Shown in pieces: positions 30,292 through 50,835 of a stretch of DNA of 64,000 nt (position 1 is the stretch's first letter; each line of letters opens with the position of its first letter). The notes below the pieces were generated by a model that saw only the letters and a list, made by a program, of their open reading frames with translations, was not told the origin of the DNA and searched no databases. The translations under genes and the position numbers were made by a program. Where the stretch lies: contig CAYWJO010000002.1 of the NCBI GenBank assembly GCA_964458565.1, positions 1 to 64,000 of the forward strand, given 5' to 3'. This stretch comes from an uncultured archaeon (GTDB taxonomy: Archaea; Asgardarchaeota; Thorarchaeia; Thorarchaeales; Thorarchaeaceae).

Positions 30292-31752
30292 GTGAGAATT
30301 ATGGGGGTGATAACTTCGAATGAATCTCGCCTTAAAGCGATATGGTCTGAGTATCGTGTATTTATACTCCTTCTCATCATAGGTGCTGTTATTTGGATTC
30401 TAGTATTCAATGCAGCAGCTCTAAATCTTATTTCTGGCCCTCGTATACAACCACACAGAGCTGTTTGGGTTGGAAGGATAAGCTTCGATTTCTTTGGTTA
30501 TGATATTCAATTTCAGTTAGAAGGGTATATTGACTATGATTTCTATTATAATTCGTGGGGTGAACAATTTCTATCGGGTTATCTTCCTTACACCCCCGAA
30601 TTTGATCATATCATTATAGATGGGACTCCATATAACACTCCATACTTCTTTCCTCCCCTCTATGTCTACATGTGTGCACTTGGTCGGGCACTACCAATTC
30701 AACCATTTGGGATAGGTGCACTCATCTGCATATTTGGGTATCTCACTGCATTTCCAATCTACGGTATTGGTAAATATCTATCCAACAATCAAAGGGTTGG
30801 TGAGGCTGCGGCTGCTGTTTATCTCCTCAATCCCCTCGTCCTATATCATACGGTATTCGAGTGGTTCAATCCCGCTCCGTTTGTGTTCTTCACATTACTC
30901 TCCTTTTACTTTCTAATGCAGAACCGAAGATATGCTGGAGTCATTTCCATTGCAATTGCTTTCATGTTTAAACAGACTGCTCTCTTTCTTGCACTACCTG
31001 TGATTGCTGTTCTAGTCAAGCGACCTCCCAGAAAGCATGAAAATAATATTGACAATGATACAACTAACGCAGATAATGATGACGATAGCGTGGATATTGT
31101 AGGATTCGTTAAGCTCGCAATAGTGGCTCTAGTCACAGTTGGTCTAATTTCAATTCCATACATTTTTGACCCTATGAATTATCTACACTATATCTTCGTA
31201 AAGCCTGGTACCATAAGCCTTACTGATTTCAGTAACACCCCTCGATTGGGCACTCCTATGGTAATGGCTGTGTTATTTATCGTAGCAGGGTCTCCAACAT
31301 GGTTGATTGAGTCTATCAATTTCCTTCAATCCACATCTATTGCTCTAATTATTGGAATTTTGCCCCTTTTTGGATTGATGTTGCTGGAACGTAAATCGGA
31401 TAAGAATCTAGTATCATATTGGAGACGAATATTCTATTTTGCTTTTCTCTTAGTTTTATGGTTGCATATCTGGAGTCCACGCGGCATCTACAAATACTAT
31501 CTTGTGTTACTCATTCCCTTCCTTTCGATTCTAGCTTCCTCCCAAATTTGTAGCCGGGGCGAGGAGAAAATAAAGCTCTCATTCAGGATGTTGATTCTAC
31601 CAACTATACTGACATTGATGGTTCTTCTTCCGCTTCGAATATACTATCTCTTCTTCTTATCTTTGATATTTGTTGGATATCTATTCCAACATTATTTTGG
31701 TGCGACCTGTTCTCTTATCGGCGACAAAATCAGAACAATTAGGTCTGGCTAA
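30292..31752 (+). CDS. GT-C-fold membrane glycosyltransferase, tandem paralog
   Basis: EGYIDYDFYY...YFFPPLY; LLNP; FKQ; PRGIYKYY matches PRGVFKYY of the upstream gene. Confidence 0.7.
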   Translation: MRIMGVITSNESRLKAIWSEYRVFILLLIIGAVIWILVFNAAALNLISGPRIQPHRAVWVGRISFDFFGYDIQFQLEGYIDYDFYYNSWGEQFLSGYLPYTPEFDHIIIDGTPYNTPYFFPPLYVYMCALGRALPIQPFGIGALICIFGYLTAFPIYGIGKYLSNNQRVGEAAAAVYLLNPLVLYHTVFEWFNPAPFVFFTLLSFYFLMQNRRYAGVISIAIAFMFKQTALFLALPVIAVLVKRPPRKHENNIDNDTTNADNDDDSVDIVGFVKLAIVALVTVGLISIPYIFDPMNYLHYIFVKPGTISLTDFSNTPRLGTPMVMAVLFIVAGSPTWLIESINFLQSTSIALIIGILPLFGLMLLERKSDKNLVSYWRRIFYFAFLLVLWLHIWSPRGIYKYYLVLLIPFLSILASSQICSRGEEKIKLSFRMLILPTILTLMVLLPLRIYYLFFLSLIFVGYLFQHYFGATCSLIGDKIRTIRSG

Positions 31753-32921
31753 AAAAGTTCCTTCAGTTCTTCTTTCTTTGTTTCTAATTTGCTTTGCAGA
31801 CTTTTAATTCTAGATTCAAGCTTCTTGCTTTGTTCATCGTAGGCTTCCTTTGGCATAGCACCTGAAGAATGTCTTTGCCCAATATGATCCCTCAATTGTT
31901 CTACGGATTTGATCTCTTTCTCTAAGGCCTTGATGTCTGCTTCAAGGTCAGCCTCTATGTTCTCTTCTTCAGTCCAGAACTGCTTAGCAGGAATCATTAC
32001 TCCTAATTGGTCTTGAGTTTTTTCAGCGAAGTCCTGAAACTGATTCCGCAAACTCTCTATGTTCTTATCTACGTTCGATAACTTCTCATTTACCTTTGAG
32101 ATATCCTTCTGAAGGTCGAATACTGCATTTGTTAGCCGTCTTAGTGTAGTTTCCATTTCCTGAGATGAAACCCCCTCAAATCCGGTATCCTCTCTTCCAC
32201 CCTCATTTGGCTTTTGTAGGGATGTTTTTCCAGCACTTCTCGTATCTCCCGAAAGCCATCTGAAGGCATTGACAACAAACTTCTGATTTTCTTTGCTTGC
32301 CAATCCCCCTCCCTTCCTAAATATCTCATAACTCCCAATACACATTACTCTGCCTTTTCCAAACTCGGAAATTGCGATAATTGGCTGAGATGCTGGTTCT
32401 GATGTGGTTGATGTTGAAGCAATCACCTTAGCTTTCTGTGTTACCTTGAGAGTACACCCCGATGGATATAGCAGTTCTTTCAGACCTGTTGTGACAGCAT
32501 GCTTTTCCAGAGATCTGATTAGCACCATTGTTGGAATCCCTGAGTTACTCCTATCGTCCTTTACAGCAGTATTTTCGAACGTGACTCCAAAAATCTCTGT
32601 CAATTTACTCATATTATTCATCAATCCCCGGTCTCCACTGGAGAGAGAAAGAAACATGAGACCTCCCCCTTGCTTGACATACTTTGTGAGAGCTTCAATC
32701 TCAGGGCCACGAAGTTTGGAGCTATTTGGGCAGCCAAATACTACCACAGACGCCTCCGCGATCTTCTTGTCAAGAATCATGAATTCAGTATATGGTTCAA
32801 CATCATAGTCATTGTCACGGAGAAGTGTTCCTAACTCAGAGTAGGTAGAATCAAGTCTTCCACGTTCGTTTTGGGTCTGATCGAAATAGATTCTCTTTCT
32901 CCGTTCACTCAATTGAAACAC
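31749..32921 (-). CDS. IFT52-like GIFT (GldG/DUF4350) domain protein with C-terminal coiled coil
   Basis: IYFDQTQNE, EIEALTKYVKQGGGLM, LTEIFGVTFEN, YPSGCTL, GKGRVMCIGS and NQKFVVNAFRWL motifs; heptad C-terminus. Confidence 0.8.
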   Translation of the reverse strand: MFQLSERRKRIYFDQTQNERGRLDSTYSELGTLLRDNDYDVEPYTEFMILDKKIAEASVVVFGCPNSSKLRGPEIEALTKYVKQGGGLMFLSLSSGDRGLMNNMSKLTEIFGVTFENTAVKDDRSNSGIPTMVLIRSLEKHAVTTGLKELLYPSGCTLKVTQKAKVIASTSTTSEPASQPIIAISEFGKGRVMCIGSYEIFRKGGGLASKENQKFVVNAFRWLSGDTRSAGKTSLQKPNEGGREDTGFEGVSSQEMETTLRRLTNAVFDLQKDISKVNEKLSNVDKNIESLRNQFQDFAEKTQDQLGVMIPAKQFWTEEENIEADLEADIKALEKEIKSVEQLRDHIGQRHSSGAMPKEAYDEQSKKLESRIKSLQSKLETKKEELKELF

Positions 32922-44394: not shown

Positions 44395-45753
44395 ATGGAT
44401 TTTTATCAGAAAGCAGGGGTTGAGCCTATAGGCAATTTACCTAGGACTCATTTCACATTGGATATTATCCCGAAGAACAAGGATGTACATGTAATTCTCA
44501 TGGGTTGGGTTCATATTATCCGTGACAAGGGTAAAATCAAGTTCTTGATTCTAAGGGACGAACGTGGTGTAGCCCAAATAACAATTCCTCAGAAGAAAGT
44601 ACCCGTAGAAGTGTTCGAAACCTCTGAGCAACTGAAGCCAGAAATGGCTATTGCCGTGCATGGTAAAATTGTAGAAGCAAAACAAGTGGAGTCTGGTGCA
44701 GAGATAATTCCTGACAGAATTCGAATACTGAACACTGCTGAGCGTCTTCCGATTGATGTCGTTGAAGGTAAGGTCGATATTGAACTTGACACTAGGCTCA
44801 ACCATCGTATTCTTGATCTGCGAAAACCTAGTATAAATGCCATTTTTAGAATCCAGCATTCTCTTGTCCGATTTGCCCGAGAATATTTGGAGCGAAATGA
44901 TTTCATTGAAATTCACACACCAAAGATTGTCGCTGAAGCAACGGAGGGTGGCGCAAATCTCTTTGAAATAAAATATTTTGAAAAGAAGGCATATCTTGCA
45001 CAGAGCCCGCAATTCTACAAGCAGCTTATGTTACTTGCTGGATTTGGACGCGTCTTTGAGATCGCACCTGTTTTCAGAGCGGAGAAACACAATACCCGCC
45101 GCCATGTTAATGAATACACTTCATTTGATCTTGAAATGGCTTGGATTAGTGGCGTTGAGGATGTCATGCAGGTCGAGGAGCAAATGCTTCATTATTCATT
45201 TGAGCTGACTGCGAAACACTGTGTTAACGAATTTGACTTACTAAATGTGGATTTCGAGGTTCCGAAGTTGCCATTTGGTCGGATCAAGTATGTTGATGCT
45301 ATTGCCCTTCTCAATGAAAACGGAAAGGAACTAAATATCACCGATGATTTAGATCCTGAGAGCGAACGCCTTCTCGGGGACCTCTTTCCAGAGAAATTGG
45401 GTACAAATATGGTCTTCATCACTCACTATCCACTTGAACTAAGACCTGCATATACCATGCCAAGCTTGACTGATGAAGGAATGACTGAGAGCTTTGATCT
45501 CACTTACAAAGGAATGGAGATTACAACAGGAGGTCAACGTATTCATCTCTATGACCTTCTTGTTGAGCGTTTCAAAGCAAAGGGGTTCAATCCTGATGAT
45601 TTTGGATTCTATCTCGATCCTTTCATGTACGGCGCTCCTCCTCATGGTGGATTAGGACTTGGTGTCGAACGCTTGACCATGCAATTACTTGGAATTGATA
45701 ATATTCGTGAGGTAACCCTCCTCCCACGAGACCGTGACCGAATCACTCCCTGA
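44395..45753 (+). CDS. aspS: Aspartyl-tRNA synthetase, archaeal type (probably non-discriminating)
   Basis: GWVHIIRD OB fold; LAQSPQFYKQ; FRAEKHNTRRH; GAPPHGG; PRD. Confidence 0.95.
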   Translation: MDFYQKAGVEPIGNLPRTHFTLDIIPKNKDVHVILMGWVHIIRDKGKIKFLILRDERGVAQITIPQKKVPVEVFETSEQLKPEMAIAVHGKIVEAKQVESGAEIIPDRIRILNTAERLPIDVVEGKVDIELDTRLNHRILDLRKPSINAIFRIQHSLVRFAREYLERNDFIEIHTPKIVAEATEGGANLFEIKYFEKKAYLAQSPQFYKQLMLLAGFGRVFEIAPVFRAEKHNTRRHVNEYTSFDLEMAWISGVEDVMQVEEQMLHYSFELTAKHCVNEFDLLNVDFEVPKLPFGRIKYVDAIALLNENGKELNITDDLDPESERLLGDLFPEKLGTNMVFITHYPLELRPAYTMPSLTDEGMTESFDLTYKGMEITTGGQRIHLYDLLVERFKAKGFNPDDFGFYLDPFMYGAPPHGGLGLGVERLTMQLLGIDNIREVTLLPRDRDRITP

Positions 45754-45759
45754 TAATAC

Positions 45760-46578
45760 TTGGTCTTAAAGGATAAACTTGGTGAGTATGATTACCTCTT
45801 TAGAGTAATACCATATGGTGAGAACCAGATGCCTGATAGAGCTCAATCAGAACTATATGCTTCAATAGCGACCCTCGATCAACTCAAGAAACTTTATGAT
45901 GTTGGCGCAGTTGATCCCCGGTCTTACCAGCGTGAAACTGAGGGATTACTTACTGAGGTTAGATTCCATCTTGATGAACTAAGACGAGTTGGGCTTGATG
46001 TTGGAAGATTTATTGAAACTGAACGGCTCTCAGACCAGTTTCCAGACGCTCTTCATATTCTTCAGTTGAGAGATACAAATCCATCAACCTCAGTTCAGGG
46101 TATGACAAAAGAGGAATATTATGATTATATCGGACTTTCCGTTCTCGATGTTGTCACTGCTAATTCCTCTAAAGGATTAATGGGATTGGCTGAGTTGATT
46201 GTTGAGGTAGTGCGAAAACTACCTGAATTGAAGTCAGTAAGTTACAATGATGTTATTGAAGCGGTAAATATGGTCGCTCAACATGGTTTAATCCCTGGTA
46301 TTAGGACTCTCAAAGGTGGAGTAAAGGTTGTTGAGCTTCGGCCTTTGGAATTACGCCGAGATCAGGCTGATGTAATCAATATTGCTGCCTCTAAGGGATT
46401 TGTTACTGTAGAAGAAATAATGCTTGAGTTCAAATGGTCTGAGGATCATGCGCGTCAAGTATTGACTAGTCTAGTCGATGCTGGAATGGCCGTTGCTGAT
46501 ATGAGGTTTTCCACAGGTGGCAGATACTGGTTCCCCGGTTTGCGTTCGAGAGACTCAAGTAGTCAAACGCATCCATAA
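45760..46578 (+). CDS. ESCRT fusion: Vps28 N-terminal core-like domain plus Vps22/Vps36 (EAP30) tandem winged helices
   Basis: N: SELYASIATLDQLKKLYDVGAVDPRSYQRETEGLL...FPDAL; C: GLMGLAEL, RPLELRRDQ, GFVTVEEIMLEFKWSEDHARQVLTSLVDAG...RYWFPGL. Confidence 0.82.
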   Translation: MVLKDKLGEYDYLFRVIPYGENQMPDRAQSELYASIATLDQLKKLYDVGAVDPRSYQRETEGLLTEVRFHLDELRRVGLDVGRFIETERLSDQFPDALHILQLRDTNPSTSVQGMTKEEYYDYIGLSVLDVVTANSSKGLMGLAELIVEVVRKLPELKSVSYNDVIEAVNMVAQHGLIPGIRTLKGGVKVVELRPLELRRDQADVINIAASKGFVTVEEIMLEFKWSEDHARQVLTSLVDAGMAVADMRFSTGGRYWFPGLRSRDSSSQTHP

Positions 46579-46579
46579 T

Positions 46580-47296
46580 CTAAAGTACCAGACGAACTGC
46601 TCCCTTCTGCTTGTCAATCCACTCTGCTAATTCTCTTTCTACAAGAAGCTTGATCACATAATGAATTTCTTTCTCAGGAAGTTTAGCAAAATTTTGTTTA
46701 TTTTCTTGAATCACAATAGACTTCACATCTAATCGAGTTCTACCATTTTCTAAAGCCCATTGATAGATTATATCTGCCCATTCTTCCAAGAAACGCCAAT
46801 ATACTCTCAATTGACGCTTTTTCCCCTCCATCCAAATTCCTACTTCTTTCTCAACAATCTTGTCGCCAATTTTTCTATAAGCATCGGCCTTGTTCTGGAT
46901 GTCTTTGAATGGATATTCTGACACAAACTTTGAGAAGCTAAGGATATGAATTGAGTATTCTTCACACCATTCGAGAACGAAATCGGACCACTCGGATGCC
47001 CACATCTGTAAATCCTCCTCTCTTACAGGAATGTGGTACATCCACTCAGTCTGTGATATGTCTCCCCAGCTTGGTAGTAACCGAGGCTCTTCTACAATCA
47101 TTTCTATTTCTGATTTAGTTTCAACAATACTACCTTTCTCTATCTCAGCTTCTGTTTCGATGATAGGCATTTCTTCGTGAATCATTGATTCCGTTTCAAT
47201 TTGAGTTTCAGTCTCTTGTTCTTCAACTATACCTTCTTTGGCATCGCTCTTATCAACTGACTTTTGTTTTCGCCTGATTCGCTCTCTCTCTCCCAC
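46580..47296 (-). CDS. vps25: ESCRT-II Vps25 homolog with acidic N-terminal extension
   Basis: WASEWSDFVLEWC; VYWRFLEEWADIIYQWALENG; LVERELAEW. Confidence 0.88.
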   Translation of the reverse strand: MGERERIRRKQKSVDKSDAKEGIVEEQETETQIETESMIHEEMPIIETEAEIEKGSIVETKSEIEMIVEEPRLLPSWGDISQTEWMYHIPVREEDLQMWASEWSDFVLEWCEEYSIHILSFSKFVSEYPFKDIQNKADAYRKIGDKIVEKEVGIWMEGKKRQLRVYWRFLEEWADIIYQWALENGRTRLDVKSIVIQENKQNFAKLPEKEIHYVIKLLVERELAEWIDKQKGAVRLVL

Positions 47297-47299
47297 AGG

Positions 47300-48532
47300 C
47301 TAGGAACCCTCCGCCCAATCACTATACTTCTTCACGTCTTCCGGTGACGTTGCTGGTCTAATGTTATCAATGGCGTCTAGAAAATCCTTTCGTGAAACGG
47401 TTCTAAGATCCAGAATCTCGGTGTCATCATCCATTCTTCCGGTGCTTTCAAGTTCTCTAATTGGTTCCATAGCTGCTTCCCGACATACTATACTTAGATC
47501 TCGACCGCTGTATCCTTCTGTTAGCATAGCCATCTCATTAAAATCAACATCAGGCGCGATATCAACACCCTCAATATGTATCTCAAAAATCCGTCTTCTA
47601 GCAATCTTGTCAGGAAGTGGAACATGAATGCGTTTCTCAAAGCGGGAACGTAGAGCAAAATCAATCTCCCATGGTAAATTCGTCGCACCAATGAGAGTGA
47701 TTCTTTCATCTGCTTCACTAGCTAACCCTTGAAGCTCCGTCAACAGTTGTGTCTTTAATCTACGTTCTCCACCAACATCGTCTCCAGACCTCGCTACCCC
47801 AATTGAGTCCAGTTCATCAATAAATATAATCGCAGGCTGCATGCTTCGCGCTCGTTCAAATAGCATCTTGACAAGTTTCTCCGATTCTCCCAACCACTTA
47901 CTTACAATATTTGCTGCTGAAACATTGAAGAATGTTGCACTCACTTCTGCAGCAACCGCACGAGCTATCAACGTTTTCCCGCATCCTGCAGGTCCATAAA
48001 GTAGGATTCCTTTCCATGGTTGTCTTGCTTTACCTCTGAACAACTCAGGGTGTTTCATTGGGGCTACGATTGCCTCTGTGATTGCTTGTTTTGCCTTCTC
48101 AAGTCCTGCTACATCTGCCATACTTCCATGTGGTGTTTCAGTAATGATGGTGTCTGCAATCATATCTCCAAGTCTTTTTCCATCCTCATCATCAGTAGAG
48201 GGGACCGGTCTATCTGACTCAGAGGTTCTTGTATCTTCAACAATTGTTGTTGGGAGTGTGCTTATCCCATCTATTGGCCCTCTTGATTTCTTTTTAATTC
48301 CTGACAGATATCTGACTCTATCAACACATTCCTGAGCTCTATCCAAGTAGTGTTTCCGAACAGAACGTAATGTTGCTGCGTTAGAGAGCTTAATCAATAT
48401 CTTACTCGCTTGCAAGTATTGTCTTGCAGCTTCCTTTTTCATTCCCCTTCTGTCTAGATCGATGGCTTTCTCAAGGAGTTTCCTGAGTCCTTCATCGAGT
48501 CTATTACTACCTGAATCTGACATTTTCTTCAC
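47300..48532 (-). CDS. vps4: Vps4 AAA+ ATPase with MIT domain
   Basis: KAIDLD...YLDRAQE MIT domain; DVAGLEKAK; PWKGILLYGPAGCGKT; SKWLGESEKLV; IFIDELD; RFEKRIHVPLP. Confidence 0.95.
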   Translation of the reverse strand: MKKMSDSGSNRLDEGLRKLLEKAIDLDRRGMKKEAARQYLQASKILIKLSNAATLRSVRKHYLDRAQECVDRVRYLSGIKKKSRGPIDGISTLPTTIVEDTRTSESDRPVPSTDDEDGKRLGDMIADTIITETPHGSMADVAGLEKAKQAITEAIVAPMKHPELFRGKARQPWKGILLYGPAGCGKTLIARAVAAEVSATFFNVSAANIVSKWLGESEKLVKMLFERARSMQPAIIFIDELDSIGVARSGDDVGGERRLKTQLLTELQGLASEADERITLIGATNLPWEIDFALRSRFEKRIHVPLPDKIARRRIFEIHIEGVDIAPDVDFNEMAMLTEGYSGRDLSIVCREAAMEPIRELESTGRMDDDTEILDLRTVSRKDFLDAIDNIRPATSPEDVKKYSDWAEGS

Positions 48533-48662: not shown

Positions 48663-49271
48663 TTGGGTACATTCAAAAAAGCATGGTCTTGGGGTCGTAA
48701 AAAACCCGACATATCTGAGGTTTCTAGTCAATTACGTATTCTAATAAAACAGTTAGAACGTCAGAGAAATAAATTGGAAAAAGAGGAACGTGACACGAAA
48801 GCTCGTGCTATTCGTGCGCGACAAGCAGGTCAGAATGAAGCATATGTGACCTATGCAACTGAAATGGTTCGATTTCGTCGCTATGTTCTTTCAATCGATA
48901 AATCCCGCTTACAGATGTTGAAGATTTTGGCTCATCTAACCCGGGCACAGACAACTGCTAAAGCAGCGAAAGCTATGGAAGATGTTGCTAAAATCCTTGG
49001 AATGCTTGGGGACTCCATGGATGCCTCAAAGGTCATAGAGAATGCTGATGAAATTGCTCGTCAAGTTCAAGAGTTCGAAATCGAATCTGGTATTGCTGAT
49101 GATGCATTCGATTCTGCTATGCCTGAGATTTCTAGTGAAGACATCGCTGAGGCTATGGCTGAAATCGACGCTGAAGTTGGTGGTAAAGCAACTGTTGGAA
49201 AACGTCCGGCGACTGAAGCGGAAGCATTAGAGGATGACATTAAAGCATTGGAACGAGAGCTAGGTGTGTAA
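48663..49271 (+). CDS. ESCRT-III subunit, Vps2/24/46 (CHMP1-3-like) class
   Basis: N-terminal amphipathic MGTFKKAWSWG; basic helical hairpin KQLERQRNKLEKEE...AGQNEAYVTYATEMVR; acidic C-half; MIM1-like tail LEDDIKALEREL. Confidence 0.9.
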   Translation: MGTFKKAWSWGRKKPDISEVSSQLRILIKQLERQRNKLEKEERDTKARAIRARQAGQNEAYVTYATEMVRFRRYVLSIDKSRLQMLKILAHLTRAQTTAKAAKAMEDVAKILGMLGDSMDASKVIENADEIARQVQEFEIESGIADDAFDSAMPEISSEDIAEAMAEIDAEVGGKATVGKRPATEAEALEDDIKALERELGV

Positions 49272-49275
49272 CGCT

Positions 49276-50835
49276 CTATAGATCATATCTTCTTTCTGCA
49301 GAGTGTCTCTCAATTTCTCGACGTGCATAATATGAATCTCGCATCAGGCTACGATATCTTCTGATAAAATCTTCAGGAACGATTCTTCCAGCTCTCAACA
49401 TATGAATAGTTTCCCGAATTGCGTCATCAAGCGCTCTTGCATCTCTTCTCATATTATCAAGATTTGGTCTTGTTTGACGCTCGTAATATTGTGGCGGTGT
49501 TCTCTGGCCTATTAGTTGTTCCAAATGGTCGCTGAACCGTTGCTGACTACCATAGTTTTGTGAATATCCAACTTGACGGTCTCTTGACCATTGATCAGTC
49601 TGCGGTTGCGGATAATATCTCGAAGTATCTTGTGCATAACGAGGTCCTGTCATTTTGGAATTCAGTATTGAATATACAATTCCCTCAATTCTTAGTCGAA
49701 TATCGCTGATGTTGGTGTCGGTCTGTTCTAACTTTCTCACACGCTGCATGTCAGTCTGAACATATCGTTCAAATCTACGTGCGATTTCAATGTAGTCTGG
49801 AAGAACTCTTTTCGTTTGATCACTGCAGATAATTTTAAGATCTCCCTGTTTCAACTTCAAAACCAATCGTTTTCGAAGTCGACCATCTTCTTGTATATCT
49901 TTCAGATACAGAAGTGGAAAATCAAAAACGATGTCAGTTTTTTTCCTTACCAACCCCGTTTCAGCAACGAAAATCATTCTTTTATTTGTGATAAAGAGAC
50001 TTCCTGTAGCTTTGTCATTCTTGATAAAATCGCTTCCTGCAAGAGTTATTGGTGAGAACGCGCTCACAGGTAGTTCATTGACTGAAAGTTCAGAGTATTC
50101 GTAAAAGGGTGAGAATTTATCTCTATAATACTTCAACCCATCTAGTTGTTTCTTTACGTCATCCATAGTCAATCGTGCTTGAACCAACGTTTCTTCCACA
50201 AGAGCTCGGTAGCTTATTCCAAGTTCAGTAATTCGATTAACAACTCCTTCAATAAAGGGAAATTGAGATGGACTCCAAGAAGACTGATCAATCAATCCTT
50301 TAGTTTCTGCAACCATCTGTTTAGCTACAATCTCGGCGTGATTTCCAATTCGCTTCTTTATCGCTGGGAATTCAGCATGTATTTCTTCAATTCTCTCTTC
50401 CAACCACTTGTAATGAAGGAAATTAGCCATCCTTAGAGATACCAATAATCTCTTTCCAGCGACCATTCGATTTGTGAATTCCTTAAGTTTCGTGTGTCCA
50501 TATTGCAGGCTCATTATCGCACTACGCATATCATGAGCTAACTCTCTTTGCTTCTCTGATATGTGTACGATTCTACTTGAATGACAGTGAGGGCAAACCT
50601 CCATTGTCCTCTTACCAATCCCAAGGTTCTCAGAGTCGCACTCGGGACATTTCAAGGGATTTTCACCTGGCAATGGGACTCCAAGATTGTGCTGGCAATC
50701 TTTGCACATTCGGTATTCTCTAACTCTCTGTTCCAAACATGCTGAGCAAATTGTAGTTCCGCAGTCCTCACACATATGAGTTGCAGACTGATTCTCACAT
50801 TCCTTGCATGTTAGGTTTGAGGAATCTGCGGTCAT
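49276..50835 (-). CDS. B-box/zinc-finger, helical, PH(GRAM/GLUE-like) and Vps23 steadiness-box protein (ESCRT-I-related)
   Basis: CKEC...CEDC...ICSAC plus three more CxxC; GSLFITNKRMIF; C-terminal LDDAIRETIHMLRAGRIVPEDFIRRYRSLMRDSY. Confidence 0.78.
   Translation of the reverse strand: MTADSSNLTCKECENQSATHMCEDCGTTICSACLEQRVREYRMCKDCQHNLGVPLPGENPLKCPECDSENLGIGKRTMEVCPHCHSSRIVHISEKQRELAHDMRSAIMSLQYGHTKLKEFTNRMVAGKRLLVSLRMANFLHYKWLEERIEEIHAEFPAIKKRIGNHAEIVAKQMVAETKGLIDQSSWSPSQFPFIEGVVNRITELGISYRALVEETLVQARLTMDDVKKQLDGLKYYRDKFSPFYEYSELSVNELPVSAFSPITLAGSDFIKNDKATGSLFITNKRMIFVAETGLVRKKTDIVFDFPLLYLKDIQEDGRLRKRLVLKLKQGDLKIICSDQTKRVLPDYIEIARRFERYVQTDMQRVRKLEQTDTNISDIRLRIEGIVYSILNSKMTGPRYAQDTSRYYPQPQTDQWSRDRQVGYSQNYGSQQRFSDHLEQLIGQRTPPQYYERQTRPNLDNMRRDARALDDAIRETIHMLRAGRIVPEDFIRRYRSLMRDSYYARREIERHSAERRYDL

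Follow-up and report, generated by a model that had tools for sequence, protein, structure and literature searches.

The window analysed here, 64,000 nucleotides of contig CAYWJO010000002.1 from a member of the Thorarchaeales, carries a gene (45829..46578, + strand) whose product joins the N-terminal domain of the ESCRT-I subunit Vps28 to the tandem winged helices of the ESCRT-II subunit Vps22/EAP30. The Vps28-N domain replaces the canonical Vps22 N-terminus and is not a divergent form of it, and the fusion is restricted to one order among the 400 Asgard genomes scanned. We consider it likely that the protein is a Vps22-type ESCRT-II subunit in which Vps28-N was swapped for the N-terminal helices by deletion, and that it binds a steadiness-box protein encoded nearby as well as Vps25, replacing the contact between the Vps28 C-terminal domain (CTD) and ESCRT-II.

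In the list of open reading frames the gene appears as a + strand ORF running from a TTG at 45760 to a stop at 46578 and encoding 272 aa, and the database copy of the protein (P0001) is annotated from the same TTG, again with 272 aa. The real fusion protein probably has 249 aa (plus stop) and starts at ATG 45829, because the homologues begin at the residue aligned with M24 of the longer form and a Shine-Dalgarno-like GGTGA lies about 8 nt 5′ of this ATG. The M24-aligned residue is the start in more than 100 homologue clusters; more than 120 clusters were found, nearly all of them labelled Thorarchaeota, with lengths of 245-260 aa. The 23-residue extension (45760-45828) is probably an annotation artefact. 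Residue numbers of domains, linker and models are those of the 249-aa form, and the ranges of Pfam and PDB matches are those of the 272-aa ORF. The two halves meet in a variable, low-confidence linker (residues 81-94; 46069..46110, + strand) made up of poorly conserved columns, inside which the pLDDT of the AlphaFold model falls below 50 at residues 84-88. Upstream, a + strand ORF of 452 aa (44395-45753) ends 6 nt before TTG 45760 and 75 nt before ATG 45829. From reading it by eye we take this ORF to be an aspartyl-tRNA synthetase and, if that is right, a housekeeping gene borders the ESCRT cluster here.

The N half (residues 1-80; 45829..46068, + strand) is a true Vps28 N-terminal domain of the steadiness-box type, as identified by phmmer, BLASTP, hhalign, Foldseek and VIA-align, and it corresponds to the core domain through which Vps28 takes part in the ESCRT-I headpiece. 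It is composed of a helical hairpin (helices at residues 2-24 and 30-54) and three short helices (58-78). A phmmer search over 1.8 billion representative proteins returned two proteins that match the N half only (E 3.6e-8 and 2e-6); both are full-length Asgard Vps28 by Pfam (profile positions 2-176 and 2-186 of 188, E 1e-14 and 2e-11), and one carries an Odinarchaeia label. In BLASTP, one Asgard Vps28 was 41% identical over 80 aa (E 8e-19) and another was 40% identical over 75 aa (E 6e-17). When 16 Thor N-domains were combined into a profile, its top five PDB matches were yeast and human Vps28 chains, and its comparison by hhalign with a profile of seven Asgard Vps28 N-domains yielded a probability of 99.6% (E 2e-24, 81 columns). 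The domain was folded and searched alone because winged-helix matches dominate the Foldseek search with the whole model, where Vps28 is found from rank 38 downward. The isolated domain folded with a pLDDT of 83 and a pTM of 0.71, and its top 12 Foldseek matches were all Vps28-N, the top ten superimposing with TM 0.62-0.72 and rmsd 2.0-2.5 Å over 81-84 columns. VIA-align, which is independent of Foldseek and was run against 48,161 chains, matched human VPS28 (6vme_E) with a Z of 11.7 (1.9 Å, 78 residues) and yeast Vps28 with a Z of 9.2, all other chains remaining at or below 7.8.

The C half is a tandem winged-helix ESCRT-II core of the Vps22/EAP30 type (46111..46530, + strand), supported by Pfam, the PDB, the AlphaFold (AF2) model and Foldseek. 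Pfam EAP30 (PF04157) matches residues 115-247 with E 2.8e-15 and 57 bits against a curated cut-off of 26.8, and human SNF8/Vps22 (3cuq_A) matches residues 119-262, a stretch of 144 residues, with E 3e-16; 2zme_A does likewise. The model, with a mean pLDDT of 85, contains two winged helices (WH1, about 95-170; WH2, about 177-234), and its best Foldseek matches were Vps22 structures (4.9e-9 for 2zme_A, then 1.2e-8 and 9.9e-7) followed by Vps36. The Thor core is 36-42% identical to that of other Asgard Vps22 proteins. Of the features that define the EAP30 family, the two tandem winged helices homologous to SNF8/Vps22 are thus present in the protein, and the N-terminal helical domain (profile positions of about 1-60) is absent from it.

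Several results indicate replacement at the N-terminus. The EAP30 match in the Thor protein begins only at profile position 64-83, whereas canonical Vps22 proteins labelled Baldr-, Sif- and Hod/Heimdall-archaeia are matched over the whole profile (positions 1-218). A profile of the Thor N-domains compared with the canonical Asgard Vps22 N-terminal helices gave an hhalign probability of 0.3%. Among 16 Thor N-domains, 14 matched VPS28 and none matched EAP30; the reverse held for the N-terminal pieces of canonical Asgard Vps22, where EAP30 was matched by 5 of 11 and VPS28 by none. The Vps28 CTD, a C-terminal four-helix bundle, is likewise absent from the protein, in which Pfam aligns only positions 2-80 of the 188-position VPS28 profile and the winged helices follow after the linker. 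A Vps28 CTD query found no real match in the source genome, which is 93% complete. One weak match to this query (residues 108-163 of Vps28 P0210, E 0.27, contig C65) was rejected as spurious, since it falls inside an ABC transporter. No separate Vps28 was found in this genome, where the N half of the fusion is the sole Vps28-like sequence. Across the 85 genomes of the family, the VPS28 model gave only weak matches (E 1e-3 to 1e-5) in 26, counted without a list of their places; in the source genome the only such match, also with an Asgard Vps28 as the query, is the N half of the fusion. The earlier note had read the two halves as Vps28 and Vps22/EAP30, with the Vps28 CTD and the Vps22 N-terminal helices both missing, and every part of that reading is borne out by these searches.

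The genes downstream suggest candidate partners. A Vps25-like ESCRT-II subunit (46580..47296, - strand; PF05871, E 5e-14, residues 100-187) is encoded convergently with the fusion, 1 nt past its stop. Ahead of its ESCRT-II domain the protein has about 95 additional N-terminal residues, an acidic, low-complexity stretch rich in E, T and I; N-terminal subdomains of Asgard Vps25 are mentioned by Makarova et al. (PMC10936438). Next come a Vps4 AAA ATPase with MIT, AAA and Vps4_C domains (47300..48532, - strand), an ESCRT-III subunit of the Snf7 family (48663..49271, + strand; PF03357, E 5e-14), and a 519-aa protein (49276..50835, - strand) of the Zn-ribbon/PH-like/coiled-coil/steadiness-box type, with weak matches to DZR, B-box, bPH_3 and Vps23_core. 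The 519-aa protein corresponds to what Makarova et al. (PMC10936438) call the Znr_PH_CC_SB family and has a syntenic counterpart in 58 of 60 family genomes. Its C-terminal steadiness-box hairpin spans residues of about 455-512 (49300..49473, - strand). We propose that this neighbour is the Vps23-like partner of the fusion.

Structure prediction supports docking of the N-domain on the steadiness box of the 519-aa neighbour. The complex was modelled from residues 1-82 of the fusion and the last 66 residues of the neighbour with separate alignments, the orthologues of the neighbour being taken from family genomes; a word-index search with its C-terminal 120 residues gave 6 proteins. The model reached a score of 0.84, against 0.01 for the best of three controls. 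Of 80 solved complexes, 58 attained the mark, as did 2 of 110 mismatched pairs, and likeness to the solved structures 2F6M, 2CAZ and 6VME may explain the pass. The runs shared at least 97% of contacts, and the pLDDT of the partner was at least 83. On the side of the fusion, the predicted contacts involve helix 1 of the N-domain (residues 6-22), which bears the invariant motif ASIATLDQLKK; on the side of the partner they involve residues 477-506, with the invariant helix EDFIRRY..LMRDSY. These are the most conserved residues in both alignments.

Based on this model, helix 1 of Vps28-N would dock on the steadiness-box hairpin at the C-terminus of the 519-aa protein, and the two together would make up a headpiece like that of ESCRT-I. 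The winged-helix pair would bind Vps25, as homology and gene adjacency suggest; yeast two-hybrid data exist for other Asgard lineages (Hatano et al. 2022, PMC9192718). Vps25 would in turn recruit ESCRT-III and Vps4, all encoded next door, and the polypeptide chain itself would stand in for the non-covalent contact between the Vps28 CTD and ESCRT-II. A bolder version, which we put forward tentatively and hold to be somewhat less probable than its negation, is that the Thorarchaeales have a "hard-wired" early ESCRT module, in which a single Vps28N-Vps22 chain directly couples a Zn-ribbon/PH/steadiness-box adaptor, which would bind membrane and cargo, to Vps25 and ESCRT-III without a Vps28 CTD, a canonical Vps22 dimerisation domain or ubiquitin. 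That ubiquitin would not be needed is taken from Hatano et al. 2022 (PMC9192718). If true, it would be a natural minimal ESCRT-I/II hybrid produced by one deletion, and its reconstitution could define the minimum that coupling of ESCRT-I to ESCRT-II needs.

One could also envisage that the Vps28-N-like hairpin serves mainly for homodimerisation, taking over from the lost Vps22 helical domain, and is not a binder of the steadiness box. Hatano et al. 2022 (PMC9192718) report that Thor Vps22 interacts with itself in the yeast two-hybrid assay and that the N-terminal region of Heimdall Vps22, where a crosslink maps to residues 41-47, contributes to its dimerisation. Steadiness-box hairpins are, moreover, generic oligomerisation units, and the structural neighbours of the N-domain include the Vps23 steadiness box and CdvA (Z of about 7.4-7.5). 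Against this, the heteromeric model with the neighbour far outscored its controls, and the heteromer interface lies on invariant residues of both proteins. We regard homodimerisation as the main role of the hairpin as unlikely, and the two activities are not mutually exclusive.

The earlier note proposed that the fusion is a covalent replacement of the ESCRT-I/II bridge and is informative for how the eukaryotic complexes separated. The covalent bridge is a reasonable idea, and the predicted complex of N-domain and steadiness box lends it support. The evolutionary part is not supported, as the fusion is derived and confined to one order. Because it is lineage-specific and secondary, it says little about how ESCRT-I and ESCRT-II first separated in eukaryotes, and it should not be taken as a relic of an ESCRT-I/II ancestor that preceded the split.

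The restriction to one order emerged from the scan of 400 Asgard genomes representing about 33 families, which also answers the call of the earlier note for a survey of the fusion across Asgard lineages. Residues 1 to about 245 were matched in 84 of the 85 genomes of the source family (f1). In a sister family of the same order, represented by one genome (G311), a full-length match at 43% identity was found, with both halves in one ORF of 265 aa. In the other families of the scan, matches began only at about residue 70-95, and none was full length. Nearly all other Asgard families have a full-length Vps28 (profile positions 2-186 of 188). Its ORFs measure about 205-235 aa, except in one family, where they are about 470-490 aa long. 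In five genomes from five other families, a canonical vps22 is directly preceded on its own strand by a complete vps28 that encodes both N-domain and CTD, the two genes being separated by -4, 0, 6, 18 and 330 nt. That the vps22 genes are canonical and unfused was verified in these five loci and in the representatives labelled Baldr-, Sif- and Hod/Heimdall-archaeia.

Given that the fusion is confined to one order and that separate vps28 and vps22 genes are adjacent and co-directional elsewhere, it is best explained as a derived product of an in-frame deletion, not as an ancestral gene. The deletion would have occurred between an upstream vps28 and a downstream vps22, removing the Vps28 CTD, the intergenic gap and the Vps22 N-terminal helices; this scenario is drawn from present-day gene order in other lineages and not from a reconstructed ancestor. 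The poorly conserved linker (residues 81-94) sits where the scar of such a deletion would be expected. The opposite course, in which the fused gene is ancestral and Vps28 and Vps22 arose elsewhere by fission, could draw on the same gene order, since fission would also leave the two genes adjacent and co-directional in several Asgard families. However, an ancestral gene fits poorly with the presence of the fusion in one order among about 33 families, and fission could not have created the Vps28 CTD and the EAP30 N-terminal helices; later fission of an ancestral fusion is unlikely because other Asgards and eukaryotes alike have conserved these two domains, which the Thor protein has lost. The Thor halves are also 36-42% identical to the separate genes, which is about the divergence of orthologues. 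We therefore judge an ancestral fusion to be highly improbable, and retain the in-frame deletion.

Still less credible is the view that the N-terminal hairpin is a generic coiled coil, a steadiness-box-like element or a divergent set of Vps22 helices, and resembles Vps28 by chance or convergence. The single-sequence match to Pfam VPS28 (PF03997) is below threshold (residues 30-110 against profile positions 2-80 of 188, E 0.003), with 17.8-19.4 bits under a curated cut-off of 24.5. The Foldseek E-values of the isolated domain are only 0.03-0.15, and its many middling structural matches are typical of helical hairpins, those at or below the VIA-align Z of 7.8 being generic hairpins that include the Vps23 steadiness box and CdvA already mentioned. 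However, chance or convergence does not account for 40-41% identity over 75-80 residues to bona fide full-length Asgard Vps28 or for the hhalign E-value to Vps28-N, and the structural match reaches beyond the hairpin into the three short helices, covering 78 of 80 residues at 1.9 Å. The canonical Vps22 N-helices are dissimilar to the domain, as described above, and this reading is already refuted.

The source genome is a metagenome bin of 3.7 Mb in 93 contigs, with 5% contamination, and near-identical DNA occurs in salt-marsh metagenomes. A contig from run X3 stops within the linker at 46093 and is uninformative. The possibility that misassembly or a frameshift error in this bin created the fusion finds nothing in its favour beyond the fragmentation and contamination of the bin and can be dismissed as already refuted; the earlier note had asked for a check on misassembly. 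The architecture is shared by 84 of the 85 genomes of the family and recurs in over 120 protein clusters of independent origin, and a contig from an independent run on a different sample (X4) crosses the junction without any difference.

The protein family, and the match of its N-terminus to Vps28-N, are already published. Makarova et al. 2024 in mBio (PMC10936438) state that Asgard Vps22 proteins of cog.002769 ("Vps22#") "are fused to an SB", and Table S3 of that paper lists residues 1-70 of KXH75178.1, a Thorarchaeota Vps22, with PF03997.15, VPS28 N-terminal domain - SB, and an HHpred probability of 99; we liken KXH75178.1 to the orthologue group of the fusion by description, not by sequence. 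The fusion has the SB-wH-wH architecture of cog.002769, which is specific to Asgards, and we place it in that cluster by architecture rather than by look-up. In Hatano et al. 2022 (PMC9192718), the orthologue ThorAB25_09030, with the same N-terminal motif, was used as "Vps22", and no Thor Vps28 was among the proteins tested. The locus described here shares its order with that of ThorAB25 (Vps22, Vps25, Vps4, ESCRT-IIIA, "SB"), in which the 519-aa protein corresponds to "SB" (ThorAB25_08990); the Vps25 orthologue is ThorAB25_09020 in supplement file 4 of that paper. The Thor Vps22 of these two papers and the fusion represent the same protein family, with nothing essential different between them.

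What is added here is, first, that among Asgard Vps22 proteins the Vps28-derived N-domain is confined to the Thor order, and second, that it replaces the canonical N-terminal helices rather than supplementing them. To this come the finding of no other Vps28 or Vps28 CTD in these genomes, the case for a deletion that gene order provides, and the predicted interface with the neighbour. These results are of modest value to those who reconstitute Asgard ESCRT: the Thor "Vps22" is order-specific and derived, it takes the place of both the Vps28 CTD and the Vps22 helical domain, and it probably pairs with the steadiness-box neighbour. For interaction studies with this protein, they predict that the N-domain would be the surface facing ESCRT-I.

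Compared with canonical Vps22/SNF8/EAP30 (PF04157; 3CUQ_A, 2ZME_A, 1U5T_A), the Thor protein shares the tandem winged-helix core and the Vps25, Vps4 and ESCRT-III neighbours, but is without the N-terminal helices of EAP30, through which Vps22 associates with Vps36 or, in Asgards, with a second copy of itself. With Vps28 (PF03997; 2F6M_B, 2CAZ_B, 2P22_B, 6VME_E) it has in common the fold of the N-domain, sequence homology and the helix that contacts the Vps23 steadiness box; unlike a full Vps28, it has no C-terminal four-helix bundle, the part that contacts ESCRT-II in eukaryotes.

Two other proteins of the source genome were noted in the course of the analysis. A second EAP30-like protein, of 778 aa, is encoded on another contig (G000 contig C3:136049-138385; locus L029:553-2886, - strand). 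It is composed of a coiled coil, an Ig-like (CarboxypepD_reg-like) segment and a C-terminal winged-helix pair whose EAP30 match (E 8e-6) falls just below the cut-off. Proteins of 730-805 aa with a like C-terminal match were common among the phmmer matches, and most genomes of the Thor family have two matches. This paralogue may be a Vps36-like second stalk subunit, and it could enter the complex and alter its stoichiometry. The other, a 390-aa protein encoded in the window (31749-32921, - strand), combines an IFT52 GIFT domain (PF23355, E 3.6e-19) with a long coiled coil C-terminal to it. It was considered as a second carrier of a steadiness box, and hhalign against the steadiness-box alignment of the neighbour gave a probability of 0.2%, which leaves this candidate unsupported with that query.

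Covalent joining of Vps28 to other ESCRT components has a parallel in the UEV-Vps23-Vps28 protein of Heimdallarchaeota (HeimAB125_14070), described by Hatano et al. 2022 (PMC9192718). Both are lineage-specific covalent ESCRT fusions that involve Vps28. [quoted passage not shown] One of the families that we scanned (f8; for example G011:C38:221032-221598) has ORFs of about 465-494 aa that end in a full Vps28 match, which fits the fusion published for Heimdallarchaeota. Vps28 has therefore been rewired covalently at least twice in Asgards.
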